From an uncultured Planctomycetota bacterium (GTDB lineage Bacteria > Planctomycetota > Planctomycetia > Isosphaerales > Isosphaeraceae), in the NCBI GenBank assembly GCA_963845755.1, contig CAWJTV010000027.1:32001-96000 (forward strand): DNA of 64,000 bases, given 5' to 3'. This document shows, piece after piece, positions 11,428 through 20,504 of this stretch. The position numbers were made by a program, and so were the translations under genes. The notes beneath the pieces were generated by a model. That model saw nothing but the letters and a program-made list of their open reading frames with translations. It made no database searches and had not been told where the DNA came from. Positions within the stretch are counted from its first letter, which is position 1. Each line of letters starts with the position of its first letter.

Positions 11428-13228
<1,801 letters not shown>

Positions 13229-13300
13229 ATCGGACGTTCGCTGTGCTCGCGGAGTATTTGGTGTCAATCGCCCTTGGCCGTTGTCGTGGGCTCGCGGCGA

Positions 13301-14317
13301 TCAAGACGGCTTCCCTTTCTTCGACCGGCGTTTCCGTGTCCAGACCCGGCGCAGATCATCCGGGCTGGCCGCTGTCTCGATCGCATTGAGAAGCTTACGA
13401 AGCAACTTGTGGTCTTGAATCTCACGGAGATCCGGCATCAAATCCAGACCCTCGGCGCCGAACTTCATTCTCAGGCATGTCTCAATGCCTTGGAGAATAC
13501 CTTCAAGCAAACCCTCCTCCTTAGCCATCCGCTCCGTAATCGTGATAAATGGCATAGACTTCTCCTGCTGATAAACGCGGAGTTCTTGCCCAAACCGCTG
13601 TTCCAGTTCCGCCGGTAGCTCCATGATCCAGTCGATGAACCGATAGAGCTGTCGGATATCTTCCGCATCCATCCCCCGCTCGTACAGCCCCTTGACCAAC
13701 CGCAGCTTCCAGGCATGCCGATCGTCTGGCGACCGACGGGTCTCCAGGGTCTTGAGGTGCGCCAACACCACCATGGCGAACGGATTCGGATCGGCCTCCA
13801 ACTCCTGAACACGAGGCGCGTAGTCCAGCAGCTTGACAAAAGGAAACTCCGTGCCGGTGCGGAAGCCCCAGCGGCTGTATCCGAACTGGCTGGGCCGCCA
13901 GTCAGGATCGTCGTCGGCCAGGATCGCCAGGCTAATCACCTCACGATCATAACGGTCGAAGATCCGATGGTTGTAGACGTACATCCGCTTGGGAAAGTCG
14001 CGCTCCTTCCCGGCCTGCACCTCGACATGGATCAGGATCCACCGCTCTTCGCCGCTCTTGAGCCACACCTTGACCAACTTGTCCACGTAACGCCGGCCCC
14101 GTTTGGCCTGGCGGACGATCGGTTGCAGCTCTTTGTCCAGCATCTCATATCCGCGCGCCCAGTCGATCTCGGCATAAGCCTGCGGGAAGAAGAAGGCCAG
14201 GCAATGCTGGAAATAACGATCCAGCGCCTCTTTCCACGGACTATCATAGTCGATCCTGGGTCGTCTCGGCGCGCTTCGCCCGCCGGTCTTTCCCGACATC
14301 GATTTCCGTTTCGCCAT
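13301..14317 (-). CDS. Rpn/YhgA-like PD-(D/E)XK nuclease (putative transposase) family protein
   Basis: DYDSPWKEALDRYF...YVDKLVKVW...ILIHVEVQ...FPKRMYVYNHRIFDRY. Confidence 0.8.
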   Translation of the reverse strand: MAKRKSMSGKTGGRSAPRRPRIDYDSPWKEALDRYFQHCLAFFFPQAYAEIDWARGYEMLDKELQPIVRQAKRGRRYVDKLVKVWLKSGEERWILIHVEVQAGKERDFPKRMYVYNHRIFDRYDREVISLAILADDDPDWRPSQFGYSRWGFRTGTEFPFVKLLDYAPRVQELEADPNPFAMVVLAHLKTLETRRSPDDRHAWKLRLVKGLYERGMDAEDIRQLYRFIDWIMELPAELEQRFGQELRVYQQEKSMPFITITERMAKEEGLLEGILQGIETCLRMKFGAEGLDLMPDLREIQDHKLLRKLLNAIETAASPDDLRRVWTRKRRSKKGKPS

Positions 14318-14379
14318 GGCGCGTGTCCGAAGATCTTTTCCATTTCACGTCCGGCGTCGGCGCAGACCCGCTTCTTGGC

Positions 14380-14570
14380 GGCCTGGACATCACGGCCACT
14401 CTCGGGGTCCGGTCCGGCCGGGGCGCGGCGCCGGGCACGCTCCGGCCCCGTCCGGTTGGGCTCCGCCCTGCGGCTCCGCCGCACCACCGCCCAGGCCTCC
14501 GCGAGCCCGGCGTCGTTTCCCTCGCTTGAGCTCAGCGACCAGACTCTTCTAGGGCCACGCGGAACCCCAG
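14380..14570. repeat. Conserved 3' end and flank of TIR-FGE gene (copy 1), with two GGA-triloop hairpins
   Basis: Closely similar to ~17788-17977; hairpins at 14458-14468 and 14469-14483. Confidence 0.9.
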
Positions 14571-15899
14571 GTAGCTGCCCCGGTTCCCCGGCACGTTCCT
14601 GATGCGGTACGCCGACCGGGCGAAGCGGGGGTTGTTGATCCAGCTCCCGCCGCGGACGACCCGGCACGCGGCCTGCGTGGCACCCGGCGGATCGTCCACC
14701 GGCGACTCCTTGTAATAATCGGCCGCATACCCATCCGAACACCACTCGTAGACATTTCCGTGCATGTCAAACAGGCCCCATTTGTTCGACTTGTAGCGGC
14801 CTACCGGGGCCGTGTAGACGTAGCCGTCCCGCGCCGCGATCGTCGCCCACTGCCAGTTCGGATACTTCTCCTTCAACGTCCCATCGGCAATGTTCCCGAA
14901 CGCCGCCATGCCCTCGGGGTCGTCGCCGAAGACGTAGCGGGTCGTCGTCCCCGCTCGGCAGGCATATTCCCATTCCGCCTCCGTCGGCAGCCGGTAGGTC
15001 TTCCCCTCCTTCCGGCTCAGCCAGGCAACGAATGCCTGCGCGTCGTTCCAGCTCACGTTGACCACCGGATGGTCGTCGGTCTGCTCGAATCCTGCGTTTT
15101 GCCAGGTAAACTTCGGATCCTGCTCGAACTGCTTCGTCGCCTCATTCCAACCATACCCCCCCTTGCTATCTTTCTTCTCCGCCTCGGTCTGGTAGCCGGC
15201 CTCGTCCACGAACCGGCGGAACTGGCCGCGGGTCACCTCGGTCACGCCCAGGTAGAACGGCCGGGTGATCCGCACCCGATGCTTCTGCATCTTGCCGGCG
15301 GCCTTGTCTACAAACTCATCGTCGTACGCGTCTGGGTCGCTTTCATCCGAGCCCATCAGGAACTCACCGGCCGGGATCAAGGCCAGCTTCATCCCGATCG
15401 AGTTCGTCCACTCCTTCGGCTGTGGCGCACGTGGCTGGTGTGGCTGGAACAGGCGCTCAATCCCTTTGATGAGCCGGTTGATGTTGTTATCGAAGTCCCG
15501 TCCCGGATCCAGATTGAGTGCGTTGCGGTAGGCTAGCCCGGCCAGCGAGGGCGGCAGCTCCGCCTCGCCCGGCATCCGGGCGTGGTCGATCAGGATCGGC
15601 ACCACGGGCAGGTTCCGTTCCAGCGCCGATTCGATCTCGATCCGGACGAAGTCGCGCGGATCGTCGATCCGACGGGCAGCACCGGCCTCGCCGGCCCAGT
15701 GGCGGCCGATCACGGCCAGCAGGATGCCGCACTCGTCGACCGCCGCCTTGATGTGCTCGCGAAAGTCGACACCGAAGGGAATGGCATCGATGTCCATGAA
15801 GATGGCGTCGGGGCCGAAATGAGCGCGCAGGCGATCGTAGAGGAATTGGGCCACGTAGGCCGAATCCTGGCGCCGGTAGGAGAGGAAGATCCTGGCCAT
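14532..15899 (-). CDS. TIR domain + FGE-sulfatase (SUMF1/CLec fold) protein, probable DGR target
   Basis: TIR: IFLSYRRQD, FMDIDAIPFGVDF, DFVRIEIESAL; FGE: NSIGMKLALIPAGEFLMGS, YRLPTEAEWEYACRAG, GLFDMHGNVYEWC, RGGSW...GFRVA. Confidence 0.92.
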   Translation of the reverse strand: MARIFLSYRRQDSAYVAQFLYDRLRAHFGPDAIFMDIDAIPFGVDFREHIKAAVDECGILLAVIGRHWAGEAGAARRIDDPRDFVRIEIESALERNLPVVPILIDHARMPGEAELPPSLAGLAYRNALNLDPGRDFDNNINRLIKGIERLFQPHQPRAPQPKEWTNSIGMKLALIPAGEFLMGSDESDPDAYDDEFVDKAAGKMQKHRVRITRPFYLGVTEVTRGQFRRFVDEAGYQTEAEKKDSKGGYGWNEATKQFEQDPKFTWQNAGFEQTDDHPVVNVSWNDAQAFVAWLSRKEGKTYRLPTEAEWEYACRAGTTTRYVFGDDPEGMAAFGNIADGTLKEKYPNWQWATIAARDGYVYTAPVGRYKSNKWGLFDMHGNVYEWCSDGYAADYYKESPVDDPPGATQAACRVVRGGSWINNPRFARSAYRIRNVPGNRGSYLGFRVALEESGR

Positions 15900-16026
15900 C
15901 GATCCCTCACCGCATCGTTTCTTCGGTCTTCACTCCCTGATGGATGATACGCGACGACGTCTCGGGGCGTCCAGCACCTGGGGAAGTTGTTCGATTGTCC
16001 ATATTGGCTCGACCCGATCGCATCGC

Positions 16027-16832
16027 TCAGCCCTGTGCTGCGGCCACGATCGTCTCGGCCCAGGCGGCCTGATCGGGTCGGAGCGGAGGGATCATGGCGT
16101 CCTCGCCGTAACGGATCTCGCGCGCGTACGGTCCGGCATCGTAGCAGCGGTCGAAGACGGACTGGAGGTCGAGCGTCACCGAAGGGTCGCCGGGCAAGAG
16201 TGGGATCTCGACCGCCGGCAGGCGATCCTCCAGTCGGATCGGGTAGACGAAGACCGTTTCGAGGTCGTCGAAAGGCCGGACGGAAATGTGATAATCGAAC
16301 GGGCCGCACGCCTCGCGTGCCGCGTCGAGCGGGACGGCCGTCGTGTGCTCGCCGCTGCGCAGGAAGTCGAACTCGATCAGGTGGACCTGGCTCGCGAGGA
16401 TCTCGTTCTGCTTGCGCTTGTAGAGGTCGCGCCCCTGTTCGCCGGGCGTCTTGTTCGAGAGGCTGAGGACCTCGATGGAGGTGACCAGTCGCTTGCCTTC
16501 GCCGCTCCGCGTAGATCTCGACGAAGGGCTCGCGGATCTCGTCGTGAGCGACCTTGATCGCGACAGGCTGGGCCGCGGGTGCATTGGCGACGGCCACCGA
16601 CCGACGACCTCCGGCTTGCGATGTGGTGGACCGCGCGCACCGCACCTCCACGTCGGGGCCAATCGAGCGCCTGAGAGCTCGATCCAGATCCGACGGCCCA
16701 GCGCCGCGAAGTAGGGGCTGGTAGACTCGCCTGAATCGCTTCCCGCAAGTAGGTGATGAAACTGTCGTGGAAGTCCGGAAAGATCTCCGGGTTCTCCAGG
16801 TAGGGGTCCATGCCTGGGAAGGGCGAGGGCAT
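16027..16832 (-). CDS. DUF4058 family protein (PD-(D/E)XK-like; several frameshifts)
   Basis: MPSPFPGMDPYLE...FHDSFITYLREAI; VTSIEVLSLSNK...GRDLYKRKQ...VHLIEFDFLRSG...LDLQSVFDRCYD. Confidence 0.85.
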
Positions 16833-16899
16833 CGCAATCCTCGAAGTGAACCGGGGCACCGATTAAGGAACGCCCCGAGCGTTCGCCAAGTGAACGGAC

Positions 16900-17798
16900 T
16901 CAGCCCTTGAGCGAACCCAGCAGGTCGGCCCAGGTCGAGACATCCTCGATGCGGTCCTGGAGGTCATGCAGGGTCCCGAGATCGGCGATGGACGCGATCT
17001 GGGCCTGGACCCCTTCTTCAGGGGGACCCAGCTTCCGGCGGCCCTGACGCAAAAGAGTCGCTCTCGCCTCCTCGGCAAGGCCCTCAGCGCAACCCTTGGC
17101 CTCGCCCTTGCGGAGGATACCCTGATAGACCGACGATTCCTCGATCCCTTCAATTCCGAACAACATGGCGGACATCCCCTCGATGATCGCGTCGACCTGC
17201 TTTTCCTCGTAGCGCAAGCCCATCAGGATCTTGGTCGCGTTCCACAACGTCGCCGCCTGCTCCCGGTTGGTTTCCCGCGCCATCCGATCCGACATGGCCA
17301 GGAGTACGCTGGGAACTCGCTCGACCGCGACATTCGACACCGGCGCCAGCGGCAAGACCGGCAAGCCCGCCACCAGGACCTCCTCCACCGGCTGCTGCCA
17401 GACCCTCACGACATTGTAGCGGAATGTGTCGTAAATGTCCCCGTGGCGATCTTGCTGCTCGAAGACCCCCGTCAACTCCGGACCATCGACCACGGGTCGC
17501 AACAAAATGACCGACGAATGCACGGGGACCTGGAAACTGTGTCGGATGATGGTGCTGTACCAGTGCACGCCCTCCGGCAAGTCGGGGTTGCGGCCTGCCT
17601 GGAGCTCGAGGTGCTCGATCCAGGGCTGGGGATCGTCCACCCAGAGGACCTTGTCGGCCTCGGCGGTAACGGTCGAGAGGTTCGAGTCGATCACCTTGAC
17701 CGCGCGGGATCAGCAACCGGGATGTGCAGAAAGCGAAGCCACGCCGCCGGCTCCATCTCGATCAGCTTCCGCAGCGTCGCGTCAAATGGCCTGGACAT
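16900..17798 (-). CDS. Rpn-like / DUF4351-type protein (frameshift near 17700)
   Basis: MSRPFDATLRKLIEMEPAAWL + VIDSNLSTVTAEADKVL..HLELQAG...EESSVYQGILRKGEAKG..EEARATLLRQGRRKLG. Confidence 0.75.
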
Positions 17799-17977
17799 CA
17801 CCACCCCTATCTGGACCCGGTCCGGCTCGGGCGCGACATCGGGCACGCTCCGGCCCCGGCCGGTTGGGCTCCGCCCTGCGGCTCCGCCGCACCACCGGCC
17901 AGGCCTCCGCGAGCCCGCCGGCGTTTCCTCGCTTGAGCTCAGCGGCCAGACTCCTCTAGGGCCACGCGGAACCCCAG
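17788..17977. repeat. Conserved 3' end and flank of TIR-FGE gene (copy 2), with two GGA-triloop hairpins
   Basis: Matches 14380-14570; hairpins at 17866-17876 and 17877-17891. Confidence 0.9.
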
Positions 17978-19206
17978 GTCGTTGAACCGGTTCACCGGCA
18001 CGTGCCCGCAGCGGTTCGCCGACCGGGCGCGGCGGGGGCGTAGAACCAGCTCCCGCCGCGGATCACCCGGAGCGCGGCCTGCGCGGCGCCCGGCGGATCG
18101 TCCACCGGCGACTGTTTGTAATAATCGGCCGTATACCCGTCCCAACACCACTCCCAAACGTTCCCCAACATGTCGTAGAGTCCCCACTCGTTTCGTTTCT
18201 TCTGACCGACCGGGTGGGTCTTACTATCGGAGTTCTTTTCGTACCACGCGTACTCTCCCAGCCCGTTCTCATCGTCACCGGAGGGATACCGCGTCGAGCG
18301 GCCGGCTCGGCAGGCATATTCCCATTCCGCCTCGGTGGGCAGACGGTAACCGTTGCCACCAGCAATGGTGACCGTGTCGCCCGCGATTCGATAGTAAGGT
18401 TTCCGACCTTCCCGCTCGCTCAGCTTGTTGCAGAACTTGACCGCGTCCAGCCAGGAGACCTTTTCAACCGGCAGGTCATCCGACCCCTTGAATGTGCTCG
18501 GGTTCTCGCCCATCACGGCCTGGTATTGGCCCTGAGTCACCTCGGTCACGCCCAGGTAGAACGGCCGGCTGATCCGCACCCGATGCTTCTGCTTCTTGCC
18601 GGCGGCCTTGTCCAGAAATTCATTGTCGAACGCATCCGGATCGCTTTCATCCGAGCCCATCAGGAACTCGCCGGACAGGATCAGCGTCAGCGTCATCCCG
18701 ATCGAGTTGGTCAACTCCTTCTGCGGCTGTGACGGAGGCGGCTGAGCTGGCTGGATCAGGCGTTCGATCCCTTGGATGAGCCGGTTGACGTTGTGGTCGA
18801 AGTCCCGTCCCGGATCCAGATCGAGCGCGTTGCGGTAGGCCAGCCGGGCCAGCGAGGGCGGCAGGTCCACCTCGCCCGGCATCCGGGCGTGGTCGATCAG
18901 GATCGGCACCACGGGGAGGTTCCGCTCCAGCGCGGATTCGATCTCGATCCGAACGAAGTCGCGCGGATCGTCGATCCGACGGGCAGCACCGGCCTCGCCC
19001 GCCCAGTGGCGGCCGATCACGGCCAGCAGGATGCCGCACTCGTCGACCGCCGCCTTGATGTGCTCGCGAAAGTCGACACCGAAGGGAATGGCATCGATGT
19101 CCATGAAGATGGCGTCGGGGCCGAAATGAGCGCGAAGCCGATCGTAGAGGAATTGGGCCACGTAGGCCGCGTCCTGGCGCCGGTAGGAGAGGAAGATCTT
19201 GGCCAT
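17939..19206 (-). CDS. TIR domain + FGE-sulfatase protein paralog 2, probable DGR target (1-nt loss in G-run near 18035)
   Basis: TIR nearly identical to copy 1; FGE motifs; the true C-terminus ...DLGFRVALEESGR lies in ORF 17939..18187. Confidence 0.9.
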
Positions 19207-19441
19207 CGATCCCTCGCCGCGTCGGTCGGTTCTTCGGTCTTCACTCCCTGATGGATGAGATGATACGCGACGAGGTCACGGGCCGTCCATCCTCTGGGGG
19301 TGCCATCGATTTCGGAAGATGGGTCAATCGAGGCCCGAATTCCCTCTTCAGGTCACCGTGGCTGACGGTCTCTCCCTGTTCGACCAGTCGGCGTGCTGGC
19401 TACAGTGAGAGTCCCTGGCCGATCGAGCGTCCGAGCGACCC

Positions 19442-20035
19442 TCAAGCCGGTCTCTCTCGCTTCGAACGGCGGCTTTCGCGTCCAGACCCGGCGCAGATCG
19501 TCCGGGCTGGCCGCTGTCTCAATCGCATTCAGAATCCGACTCAGCAATTCATGGTCGTGAAGCTCACGAAGGTCTGGCATCAGCTCTAGACCTTCCTCGC
19601 CAAATTTCATTCGTAGGCATGCCTCGATGCCTTCAAGCAGGCCCTTCTCCATGCCGACCCGCTCAAAAATTGTGATGAATGGCATGTGCTTCTCCTGCTG
19701 ATAAGCGGTGAGCTCTTGCTGGAAACGCTGTTCCAGTTCCTGGGGCAGATCCATGATCCAGTCAATGAATCGTAACAACTGCCGCACGTCCTCCGCATCC
19801 ATCCCGCGCTCGTAGAGCCCCTTGACTAGCCGCAGTTTCCAGGACTTCCGGTCAGCTGGCGACCGAGTCTCAGGGTCGTCCACGTGGATCAGGAGCCACC
19901 GCTCTTCACCGCCCTTGAGCCAGACCTTGACCAGCTTGTCGAACGTAACGCCGGCCCTGCTTGGCCTGGCGGACGATCGGCTGGAGCTCCTTGTCCAGCA
20001 TGTCCTAGCCGCGCGTCCAGTCGATCTCGGCGTGG
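19442..20035 (-). pseudogene. Degenerate Rpn-like gene: 5' truncated, central deletion, C-terminal part retained
   Basis: DKLVKVWLKGGEERWLLIHV is joined almost directly to ETRSPADRKSWKLRLVKGLYERG; homologous to 13301..14317. Confidence 0.8.
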
Positions 20036-20155
20036 GCGCGCGGAAAGAAGCGGGCTTGACGGCTCGCCTGAACTGGACTGGCGTGAAAGATTCCGGATAG
20101 GATGAGCAGGGCGTCAAGAGGTGTGAGACGAGATGCCAGAGGTGGACGCGTTCCC

Positions 20156-20400
20156 ATGATTCGTGCCATCGTTCAAAATGGGCTCCTGCACCGCTCGATC
20201 CCTTGCCACGCGACTGGGCCGAGGGTCGCATCGTCGTCGTCGAAGACGCCGAGTCTGCCATTTCCGATGATCTCGACGAGTGGTATGAGGAACTCAATCG
20301 CCTGGGACCGGCTCAATATGAGCCGGGTGAGCGCGAACAGATTCGGGCCATCTTGGCGGAAGCCGATGCACTCGTCCGTCGCGAGATGGGATCTCTGTGA
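20156..20400 (+). CDS. Putative antitoxin (frameshift near 20190)
   Basis: MIRAIVQNG...DPLPRDWAEGRIVVVE; stop overlaps the ATG of a PIN gene fragment. Confidence 0.5.
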
Positions 20401-20504
20401 TGGCCCGATACCTCTTCGACACCAACCATCTCAGCGCCGCTATGGACGATGAAGCCGGTTTCCGCGAACACATCTTCCCGTTGCGTCGGGCTGACGATCG
20501 ATAG
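20400..20504 (+). pseudogene. Truncated VapC/PIN toxin
   Basis: MARYLFDTNHLSAAM... PIN N-terminal DTN motif, stop after 34 residues. Confidence 0.6.

Follow-up and report, generated by a model that had tools for sequence, protein, structure and literature searches.

The window, a stretch of 64,000 nucleotides from an uncultured planctomycete of the Isosphaeraceae (assembly GCA_963845755.1, contig CAWJTV010000027.1, positions 32,001 to 96,000), carries two variable-protein genes on its minus strand, each joining a TIR_2 domain to an FGE-sulfatase domain of the CLec fold and each followed by a flank that is predicted to fold. The features are as follows.

14532..15899, minus strand: variable-protein gene copy 1 (TIR_2 + FGE-sulfatase, CLec fold), 455 aa, intact; ORF and Pfam
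14549..14674, minus strand: VR of copy 1; homology to the template repeats (TRs) of relatives
14424..14518, minus strand: flank element copy 1; CM R1, 78.2 bits
14501-14515 pairing with 14426-14440, minus strand: helix P1 of copy 1; MFE fold and CM
14486-14497 pairing with 14444-14456, minus strand: helix P2 of copy 1; MFE fold and CM
14469..14483, minus strand: hairpin P3 of copy 1; 6-bp stem, GGA triloop
14458..14468, minus strand: hairpin P4 of copy 1; 4-bp stem, GGA triloop
17939..19206, minus strand: variable-protein gene copy 2 (TIR_2 + FGE-sulfatase); ORFs and Pfam
17956..18080, minus strand: VR of copy 2; sequence comparison
17832..17926, minus strand: flank element copy 2; CM R1, 82.2 bits
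17877-17891, minus strand: hairpin P3 of copy 2, within the four-helix element
17866-17876, minus strand: hairpin P4 of copy 2, within the four-helix element

Copy 1 matched TIR_2 at 2.8e-12 and FGE-sulfatase at 3e-61 in Pfam. Copy 2 is split into two frames (ORFs 17992-19206 and 17939-18187) by a 1-nt deletion inside the VR, the gap lying opposite position 14633 of copy 1. Both genes end in an in-frame TGA, at 14534-14532 in copy 1 and at 17941-17939 in copy 2, where the stop is reached only past this deletion. Between the two genes, identity is 92-100% over the TIR part and about 85-90% at the 3' end, with a middle part that could not be aligned. TR-only matches in relatives span positions 7/8 to 128/132 of the query (window:14400-14680:-), and the variable positions within the VR of copy 1 lie at 14573-14639. 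Comparing the two VRs, differences were observed at 16 of 25 TR-A columns and at none of the 78 other columns, which bears out the preliminary description of these genes as DGR-type targets with true VR ends. Because the differences occur only at TR-A columns, whereas the flank and the remainder of the gene have drifted apart, both VRs appear to have been rewritten from one TR after the duplication.

The preliminary description had also reported identical GGA-triloop hairpins about 50 nt after both stop codons, and their sequence and coordinates were confirmed on the minus strand. Both copies read TGCGGC-GGA-GCCGCA followed by GGGC-GGA-GCCC (14483-14458 and 17891-17866), the 26-nt pair starting 48 nt past the stop codon in copy 1 and 47 nt past it in copy 2. 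The exact 26-mer was found twice in the window against 0.00 expected from 100 shuffles; the 14.3-Mb genome contains no third exact site, and with up to 4 substitutions allowed only one extra site was detected on all 49 contigs (C7:49600). That the hairpins stayed identical while their neighbours drifted is literally true, as they lie inside a 38-nt identical run among 152 flank columns with 17 differences between the copies. Within this genome, however, the identity is not significant, since 2030 of 20000 shuffles of the same 17 differences gave an equally long run, and the argument for a presumed selection on the element rests on other genomes. A search of 185,579 species genomes returned 9 non-planctomycete exact matches to the hairpin pair, all lacking the rest of the element and none (0/9) with an FGE tail upstream. 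A dispersed repeat of the REP or MITE kind was ruled out, as the CM search of the genome gave 4 matches in 14.3 Mb, all 3' of FGE VR genes. Two of the six copies in this genome are degenerate, scoring 21.9 and 19 bits.

Comparison between genomes indicates that the hairpins P3 and P4 are the tips of a conserved element of about 95 nt with four predicted helices, not two free hairpins. The pair had been taken as a functional unit by itself; we replace it with this four-helix fold, which encloses both hairpins. P1, the outer stem of 10-14 bp, and P2, of about 12 bp with a bulge, both enclose a three-way junction with P3 and P4 as two of its arms, short G+C stems with a C-G closing pair around a GGA triloop. 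Of 35 distinct elements, 30 have GGA as the P3 loop and 31 as the P4 loop. The element starts about 13 nt past the stop codon and about 30 nt past the end of the TR/VR homology. In the MFE fold of copy 1 the four helices were alike under DNA and RNA parameters (z -2.1 and -2.5), and the DNA fold of copy 2 (z -2.67) gave helices as in copy 1.

To check the stems for covariation, 36 element copies from 19 genomes were aligned; alignments with the 3' partners slid served as controls, together with 500 shuffles. In the true alignment 86.4% of cells were paired versus 27-40% in the slid ones, compensatory changes occurred in 19 of the 36 pairs, and 82 compensatory cells were counted versus 14-26 in the slid controls. 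None of the 500 shuffles reached the observed pairing or compensation, and RNAalifold, unaided, recovered the same helices. The second stem pair of P3 changes from G-C to A-T in 9 of 36 copies, and P4 is paired in 97.9% of cells with compensatory change in two pairs. A further set of 24 metagenome matches (22 distinct) from outside model building was 91.6% paired with 8 compensatory pairs, so that the covariation check proposed at the outset yielded compensatory changes in the family copies and again in the distinct metagenome copies. Among non-Watson-Crick cells on the sense strand G.T outnumbered A.C by 50 to 24, a difference too weak and too non-independent for deciding between RNA and DNA.

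When 121 family genomes were searched with the CM, 41 copies were found in 21 genomes, and the element is retained in 12 of 53 genera. Of these copies, 39 directly follow the end of an FGE-type gene, one lies 150 nt after such an end, and one is an exception; in metagenomes a CLec tail was upstream in all 22 assessable copies. The expectation that the hairpins lie only downstream of FGE/CLec variable regions thus held in 40 of 41 family copies and in every assessable metagenome copy, and the motif also proved usable as a probe for further targets. The distance from stop codon to element was 5-37 nt in 10 of 13 relatives' copies examined and 7-19 nt in 21 of 22 metagenome copies. The element is shared across N-terminal architectures (TIR, kinase, caspase) and different VR families, and DNA searches gave flank-only matches where the adjoining VR was unmatched. 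Many matches in different genomes share a 3' end at query position 252, which is window position 14429, and the DNA beyond the element differs between copies. One genome, G011, contains a partial second element 0.7 kb downstream of the full one, beyond an unrelated ORF. The ORFs adjoining elements matched no Pfam family. An Rpn-family name for neighbouring ORFs was rejected, as it came from a single sub-threshold NCBIfam match (E 0.0085, 15.9 bits against a cut-off of 52.1).

Relatives of the window's genome contain complete DGRs with target, element, HRDC gene, RT and TR. In G029, for instance, the order is a TIR-kinase-FGE target, the element, an HRDC ORF, an RVT_1 ORF and an A-rich TR. The HRDC-domain ORF between target and RT showed RecQ C-terminal matches. 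In three of four cognate VR/TR pairs mismatches occurred only at TR adenines (17/25 vs 0/78, 12/25 vs 0/78 and 17/25 vs 0/78 at other columns); the fourth pair was mismatched at 21 of 25 TR-A columns and at 4 of 78 others. The proposed tie between flank and VR ends was upheld, the CM placing the element 3' of the cognate VR in 4/4 cases and 3' of the TR in 0/4 (TRs of G029, G039, G062 and G046); a partial look-alike 150 nt past the TR of G039 fell under the CM threshold. Both a DGR RT and the element were present in 13 of the 121 genomes, the element only in 8, the RT only in 11 and neither in 89, corresponding to an odds ratio of 13 in which related genomes are not independent. Because 11 genomes have the RT without the element, and because the VR flank of at least one of them (G001) is only loosely like it, the element is not obligatory for this type of DGR. 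Pairing of the TR-flank RNA with the conserved CCGGAGCG loop of the element was considered and rejected: by eye, a 9-nt complement is present in G039 and G029 and absent in G046 and G062, and this stretch is more easily read as one strand of a stem within the TR flank.

In the window's own genome, searches for a TR by pattern, by blastn, with an nhmmer profile of six VRs and with three TR+spacer queries from relatives returned only paralogous gene ends. With the relatives' sequences as queries, no homologue of the RT or HRDC gene of this DGR type was found in the assembly, which is 87.9% complete; the missing 12% or so could hold the core. RVT_1 gave 42 matches in the genome, none of them on the window's contig and none like the relatives' DGR RT, and a search for Avd gave five 23S_rRNA_IVP matches, none adjoining an RT or a VR. 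Four sequencing runs were compared, as contigs, and gave no cover of the element or VR, the best DNA run sharing 0.21 of words; no RNA run was listed. The window targets are orphans or else depend on a core that lies in the missing part of the genome.

The complete DGRs of relatives, the placement after VRs and not TRs, and the TR-A signature make a homing signal that marks recipients the best explanation of the element. We consider it probable that the element is a cis-acting mark of the DGR recipient site, an address for targeted hypermutation; its position and its conservation across sequences suggest such a role in homing. Lying 3' of VRs and not of TRs, it would mark recipient genes, dispersed "remote" copies among them, and an HRDC-type DGR would use its RT and TR RNA to direct adenine-mutagenised cDNA into the genes so marked. 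The structure would presumably be required for homing. It may form in DNA, by analogy with the hyperstable DNA mini-hairpins made by GNA triloops with a C-G closing pair; the 40-90 nt spanned by pairing in P1 and P2 are easier to reconcile with a single-stranded molecule, RNA or ssDNA, than with extrusion of a cruciform from duplex DNA. As a tentative extension, the element could be, instead of a simple cruciform, a single-stranded three-way junction of the sense strand, a portable address for the HRDC-type DGR machinery to read. A single RT/TR core, which might lie on an unassembled replicon or mobile element, could then rewrite many dispersed sensor genes, and such a core may have rewritten the window VRs after duplication. 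Against current use of the window copies stand the absence of the core from the assembly, the frameshift in copy 2 and the truncated or degenerate state of other copies.

The flank might instead be kept because the variable-protein genes share it, without any need for homing: it would fold as sense-strand RNA in the 3' UTR of their mRNA and act there as a terminator that needs no U tract, as protection of the 3' end or as a regulatory site. Covarying long-range helices like P1 and P2 are typical of RNA folds, the RNA fold is stable (-60.3 kcal/mol, z -2.5), the element is close to the stop codon, and the mild sense-strand G.T bias is equally expected of an mRNA structure. However, a terminator scan at both elements found nothing terminator-like and no T run 3' of the stem-loop, and an Rfam cmscan of 13000-20500 at E<=1 assigned no family to the element, returning only a chance lncRNA match elsewhere. 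Restriction to DGR-type CLec ends and absence after TRs are not obviously expected of a general mRNA element, which in G029 would moreover fall inside the presumed target-HRDC-RT-TR operon. We regard an mRNA role of this kind as unlikely.

Alternatively, the element could mark the edge of a portable 3' cassette, made up of the CLec end and the flank, or be its recombination site, the cassette being shuffled among genes. This would explain the sharp 3' edge shared by matches in many genomes, the mosaic make-up of the window genes, the differing sequence past the element and the partial second copy in G011. The compensatory changes nevertheless point to a selected fold and not just a junction sequence, and no recombinase consistently adjoins the element, its neighbours being the ORFs without a Pfam family described above; such a cassette boundary seems quite improbable. 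That the flank simply hitch-hikes without function, copied along with duplicated gene ends, is very improbable: the covarying helices, the nearly invariant loops, the retention across genera and the flank matches beside unmatched VRs all speak against it, even if the non-significant 38-nt run and the two degenerate copies in this genome speak for it.

Little is firmly established about how a cellular DGR with many remote targets selects its recipient sites, and the sole tested rule, which derives from a phage element, would miss the window genes. The element offers a sharply bounded, covarying marker of VRs and not TRs, a concrete object for homing assays. As a probe it finds remote or orphan targets even where RT and TR are unassembled, as with the TIR-CLec genes of this genome, whose DGR signature is fresh although no core is visible, and it is a candidate part for retargeting DGR mutagenesis.

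In BPP-1 and other phage DGRs there is one hairpin, 4-34 bp from the VR, whose stem measures 7-10 bp and whose 4-nt loop follows the consensus GRNA (PMC3240598); the hairpin of this class forms in supercoiled DNA (Guo et al. 2011). Efficient homing requires inverted repeats 3' of the VR, which are missing after the TR (PMC3240598, PMC5758913). Like the hairpin described there, the element contains G+C-rich inverted repeats on the downstream side of the VR/IMH, does not follow the TR, and has stems free in sequence with pairing kept and a conserved sense-strand loop with first base G and last base A (PMC3240598). Where the phage DGRs have a single hairpin (PMC3240598), the element has a tandem pair with stems of 6 and 4 bp, enclosed by two more covarying stems, and its loops are GGA of 3 nt instead of 4-nt GRNA. 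The base of P1 lies about 30 nt and the triloop hairpins about 65 nt past the end of the TR homology. The element thus departs from the published hairpin rule in both stem and loop, a point against the homing reading, and the hairpin rule of MyDGR, as given in PMC6602519, would miss the element. Synthetic mini-hairpins resemble the tips, both of which are C-GGA-G, a GNA loop with C-G closing: in studies of synthetic oligonucleotides, d(GNA) triloops with this closing pair are unusually stable in DNA (PMC13037366, PMC3201870).

The relatives resemble HRDC-type multi-target DGRs (architecture C, PMC5758913; Treponema DGR) in the HRDC ORF between target and RT and in having several dispersed CLec targets per genome; unlike architecture C as described there, the window's own assembly shows targets only and no core. 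Our literature searches turned up no previous account of a structured flank common to HRDC-type DGRs; the supplements of PMC5758913 and PMC7517822 and the figures of PMC3240598 may list such hairpins. The cyanobacterial remote variable proteins (PMC7517822) are alike in that signalling domains (TIR, kinase, caspase-like) bear CLec ends and that remote targets lie far from the RT. According to the authors, activation of remote targets may depend on cis features close to the 3' end; no such element is named there, and the four-helix flank provides a concrete candidate in another phylum.

Both variable genes of the window lie on the minus strand and are paralogues:

Copy 1, 14532-15899, minus strand: TIR_2 then FGE-sulfatase (CLec fold); intact, 455 aa; stop TGA at 14534-14532.
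Copy 2, 17939-19206, minus strand: TIR_2 then FGE-sulfatase (CLec fold); stop TGA at 17941-17939.

In copy 2, a 1-nt deletion within the variable region (VR), opposite position 14633 of copy 1, breaks the gene into two ORFs (17992-19206 and 17939-18187). The genes are mosaic (window 14750-15250 versus 18150-18560), with a TIR part 92-100% identical, an essentially unalignable middle and a 3' end at about 85-90%. Elsewhere in the genome, the copy on contig C26 is a 69-aa remnant and that on C8 an open frame of 253 aa containing an internal duplication. The ORFs downstream of copy 1 (13301-14317) and upstream of copy 2 (19353-20297) are also paralogues, lying as direct repeats that are 78-89% identical; no Pfam family matches either of them, and one gives a sub-threshold match to the NCBIfam Rpn family.

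The hairpin pair reported in the preliminary description was recovered after both genes, as an exact 26-nt string at 14483-14458 and 17891-17866 (minus), 48 and 47 nt past the stops. The string occurs twice in the window versus 0.00 times in shuffles, and a scan of the whole genome (49 contigs, 14.27 Mb) that allowed up to four substitutions added one further site (C7:49600). It was also claimed that the hairpins stayed identical while their flank drifted. The identity stands, as the hairpins sit in a 38-nt stretch free of differences, in a flank whose 152 columns hold 17; however, a run of that length was reached in 2030 of 20000 shuffles of the flank differences, and the window by itself is therefore no proof of selection.

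In an alignment of 47 flank copies, conservation extended over about 95 nt. Eleven truncated or degenerate copies were left out (a look-alike on the template-repeat side in genome G039, C7b and C8 of the window's genome, and loci L026, L027, L029, L037, L045 second copy, L061, L074 and L075), and the remaining 36 copies from 19 genomes formed alignment A1. Unaided, RNAalifold predicted four helices in A1, and in this model the hairpin pair is part of a larger four-helix element. Pairing was counted for a written-out four-helix structure.

Pairing in the helices of the element (alignment A1, 36 copies)
P1, outer stem: 75.9% of cells paired
P2, stem with one bulge: 90.6% of cells paired
P3, first hairpin: 94.1% of cells paired
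P4, second hairpin: 97.9% of cells paired

Over the whole structure 86.4% of cells were paired, versus 26.7-40.0% with the 3' partners slid by 1-3 columns. The stems covary, a check named at the outset: both-sided changes occurred in 19 of 36 pairs and in 82 cells, versus 14-26 in the slid controls. None of 500 shuffles reached any observed measure; as the copies are related, the comparison with slid partners is the safer one. At the three outermost positions of P1, 20-23 of 36 copies lack a pair, which leaves P1 with about 10 bp in most copies. The second pair of P3 changed from G-C to A-T in nine copies, and in P4 G-C became C-G once and U-A once. Folded singly, both window copies again formed these four helices, whichever strand was used and under DNA as well as RNA parameters (z -2.1 to -2.8). 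The loop is GGA in 30 of 35 distinct elements for P3 and in 31 of 35 for P4. Natural variants exist with one hairpin (L077, L078 and L041, from G036, G030 and G026) and with none, only P1 and P2 (L037, from G006).

A covariance model of the element, R1, was run on the window's own genome, the family and public collections. In the own genome, where 150 of about 32,000 first-look candidates were scored and the four-substitution scan of the 49 contigs served as a complement, at least four matches had E ≤ 1, each of them 3' of an FGE VR gene (the window copies C27b, 82.2 bits, and C27a, 78.2; C26, 64.5; C7a, 46.7), in agreement with the proposed association with FGE/CLec ends. Two further paralogous ends, C8 and C7b, carry a degenerate element (21.9 and 19 bits). 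The family search, with stricter filters and 35 candidates scored per genome, identified the element at E ≤ 0.001 in 21 of the 121 genomes (12 of 53 genera), with 41 matches in all; 39 lie directly 3' of an FGE/CLec-type gene end, assigned by VR homology or translated tail. Among 13 copies checked by translation, an FGE/CLec-type tail ended 5-37 nt upstream in ten. The match G062:C154 lies 150 nt past a VR-like match, and the partial copy G011:C86:214130 follows an unrelated ORF, with a full copy 0.7 kb upstream of it. An extra degenerate copy found by BLAST only, G062:C27, follows a non-FGE ORF.

The exact 22-nt hairpin-pair pattern had 24 matches in 185,579 species, one genome each. Fifteen, all in Planctomycetota/Isosphaeraceae records, are full elements (63-98 bits); the other nine reach no more than 22 bits or obtain no score, lie in coding DNA, tandem repeats or other unrelated DNA, and none of these nine non-Planctomycetota matches has an FGE tail upstream. 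Metagenome contigs gave 31 matches, 24 of them elements; a CLec tail precedes all 22 that have upstream sequence, with the stop 7-19 nt before the element in 21. The motif thus serves as a probe for other targets, as had been suggested. In metagenome copies outside model building, 91.6% of cells were paired versus 22-44% when slid, with eight compensatory pairs, in an alignment that leans towards the model because it was fitted to R1. Five metagenome loci (L115, L122, L123, L125, L139) hold the 22-mer inside a different element, an imperfect inverted repeat about 200 nt long after a TTGACA-like box on A+T-rich contigs, adjoining no CLec gene.

An ORF start (MSRPFDATLRKL...) lies 3' of the element in copy 2 (17690-17790, minus) and likewise in the C26 copy; the window ORF runs for 34 codons before it meets a stop. 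In G062 the template repeat, too, is followed by a similar start (loci listed: C26, L054, L086). In G011 an ORF separates the full element from the partial one.

A DNA search with window 14400-14680 (minus) matched 41 of 121 same-family genomes, either over VR and flank, many with a sharp end at query position 252 (window 14429), over the VR length alone (positions 7/8 to 128/132), or over the flank alone; 45 matches, counted from the match table, extend into the hairpin region (query position ≥200). Several VR-length matches are true template repeats (TRs). In G029 one strand carries, in order, a TIR-kinase-FGE target, a flank with hairpins, an HRDC-domain ORF, an RVT_1 ORF and a TR, the last a repeat that has AAC codons and 24% A; like TRs are present in G039, G062 and G046, the latter of the window genome's genus. 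In three of four cognate VR/TR pairs mismatches are confined to TR adenines (17/25 vs 0/78, 12/25 vs 0/78, 17/25 vs 0/78), and in the fourth they affect 21/25 TR-A versus 4/78 other columns. When the window VRs are compared with each other, differences fall on 16 of the 25 columns that are A in the relatives' TRs and on 0/78 other core columns, while the rest of gene and flank has diverged, which indicates that both were written from one TR after gene duplication. Gene conversion was rejected as the source, as it cannot yield differences at TR-A columns only.

In the window's assembly, a six-VR profile matched paralogous gene ends only, the relatives' TR and spacer sequences matched VRs only, and their RT and HRDC proteins had no DGR-type homologue; a DGR RT query gave no match at E ≤ 1e-20, versus matches in 24 of 121 family genomes. 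The genome holds targets with a fresh DGR signature and no visible core; being 87.9% complete, it may have the core unassembled, lost or on another replicon. Genome-wide there are 42 RVT_1 matches, none on the window's contig; several lie in frames of 643 and 701 aa that occur in multiple identical copies; these are probably group II introns. A further VR-like FGE gene end (C20:603225-603560), as similar to the relatives' TRs as copy 2, has behind it just the 5' half of the element. CLec tails of a second family (...GFR.AR.TY-type; C11:834200-834340, C25:58270-58410, C11:649880-650010), one of them AAC-rich with 21% A, have no RT nearby and may belong to another DGR family.

Recipients and donors differ in the element: R1 matched after 0/4 TRs versus after 4/4 cognate VRs, and in G046 the TR begins about 20 nt past the element of a neighbouring target. 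Element and DGR RT are both present in 13 of the 121 genomes, the element only in 8, the RT only in 11 and neither in 89 (odds ratio 13, one-sided Fisher 2e-6, values inflated by related and incomplete genomes). As RT-only genomes exist, and the VR flank of one of them, G001, resembles the element only loosely, through a short CGGAGC-like motif that is repeated in both, the element is not universal for HRDC-type DGRs. Past the TR, about 150 nt show conservation in four relatives (L050:6890-7130, L051:9456-9600, L054:2990-3160 minus, L064:640-790), contain stems, e.g., CCGCCCGG...CCGGGCGG, and may be a structured spacer RNA of these DGRs. A dispersed G+C-rich repeat of about 50 nt (GGGGAGAGGGTGCCCGAAGGGCGGGTGAGGGG-like) is present in G039 after the TR and after one target (L051:9670-9735) and recurs at >20 sites on many contigs of the window's genome.

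We consider it probable that the fold marks recipient sites for an HRDC-type DGR; its action would parallel that of the phage BPP-1 hairpin, but through a junction-shaped structure. The preliminary proposal of a homing signal is largely right in kind, with a function that is putative, but its two hairpins were an incomplete anatomy of the four helices. The main rival, an mRNA 3'-UTR structure, agrees with the long-range helices and with the excess of G.T over A.C cells (50:24) on the sense strand; we nevertheless hold it to be unlikely, since a T run is absent at the element, which is confined to the ends of DGR-type genes that vary both in their N-terminal parts and in their VR family. A cassette boundary or recombination site fits the covariation poorly and is more doubtful still, and neutral hitch-hiking, with the same poor fit, is very improbable.

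No description of the element was found in the literature searched, supplements and figures lying outside that search. According to Guo et al. 2011 (PMC3240598), a hairpin/cruciform just 3' of the BPP-1 VR is required for efficient homing, its stem working via structure and its loop via sequence, and phage DGRs share G+C stems of 7-10 bp with 4-nt GRNA loops, at a distance of 4-34 bp from the VR, a rule taken literally by MyDGR (PMC6602519). Wu et al. (PMC5758913) state that no inverted repeat follows the TR and place HRDC-containing cassettes in architecture C, and a cyanobacterial survey (PMC7517822) only suggests cis features activating remote targets. As far as these texts go, the element shares with the known systems its position and the donor/recipient asymmetry (PMC3240598, PMC5758913), and with the Guo hairpin also stems conserved in structure rather than sequence and a conserved G...A loop; in contrast, it departs from that hairpin in stem length and loop size and, for its triloop hairpins at about 65 nt past the end of TR homology (the base of P1 lies at about 30 nt), in distance, and has two extra enclosing helices (PMC3240598). 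Both tips read C-GGA-G, a d(GNA) triloop closed by a C-G pair, which is described as unusually stable in DNA (PMC13037366, PMC3201870), an analogy that would favour a DNA-level structure.
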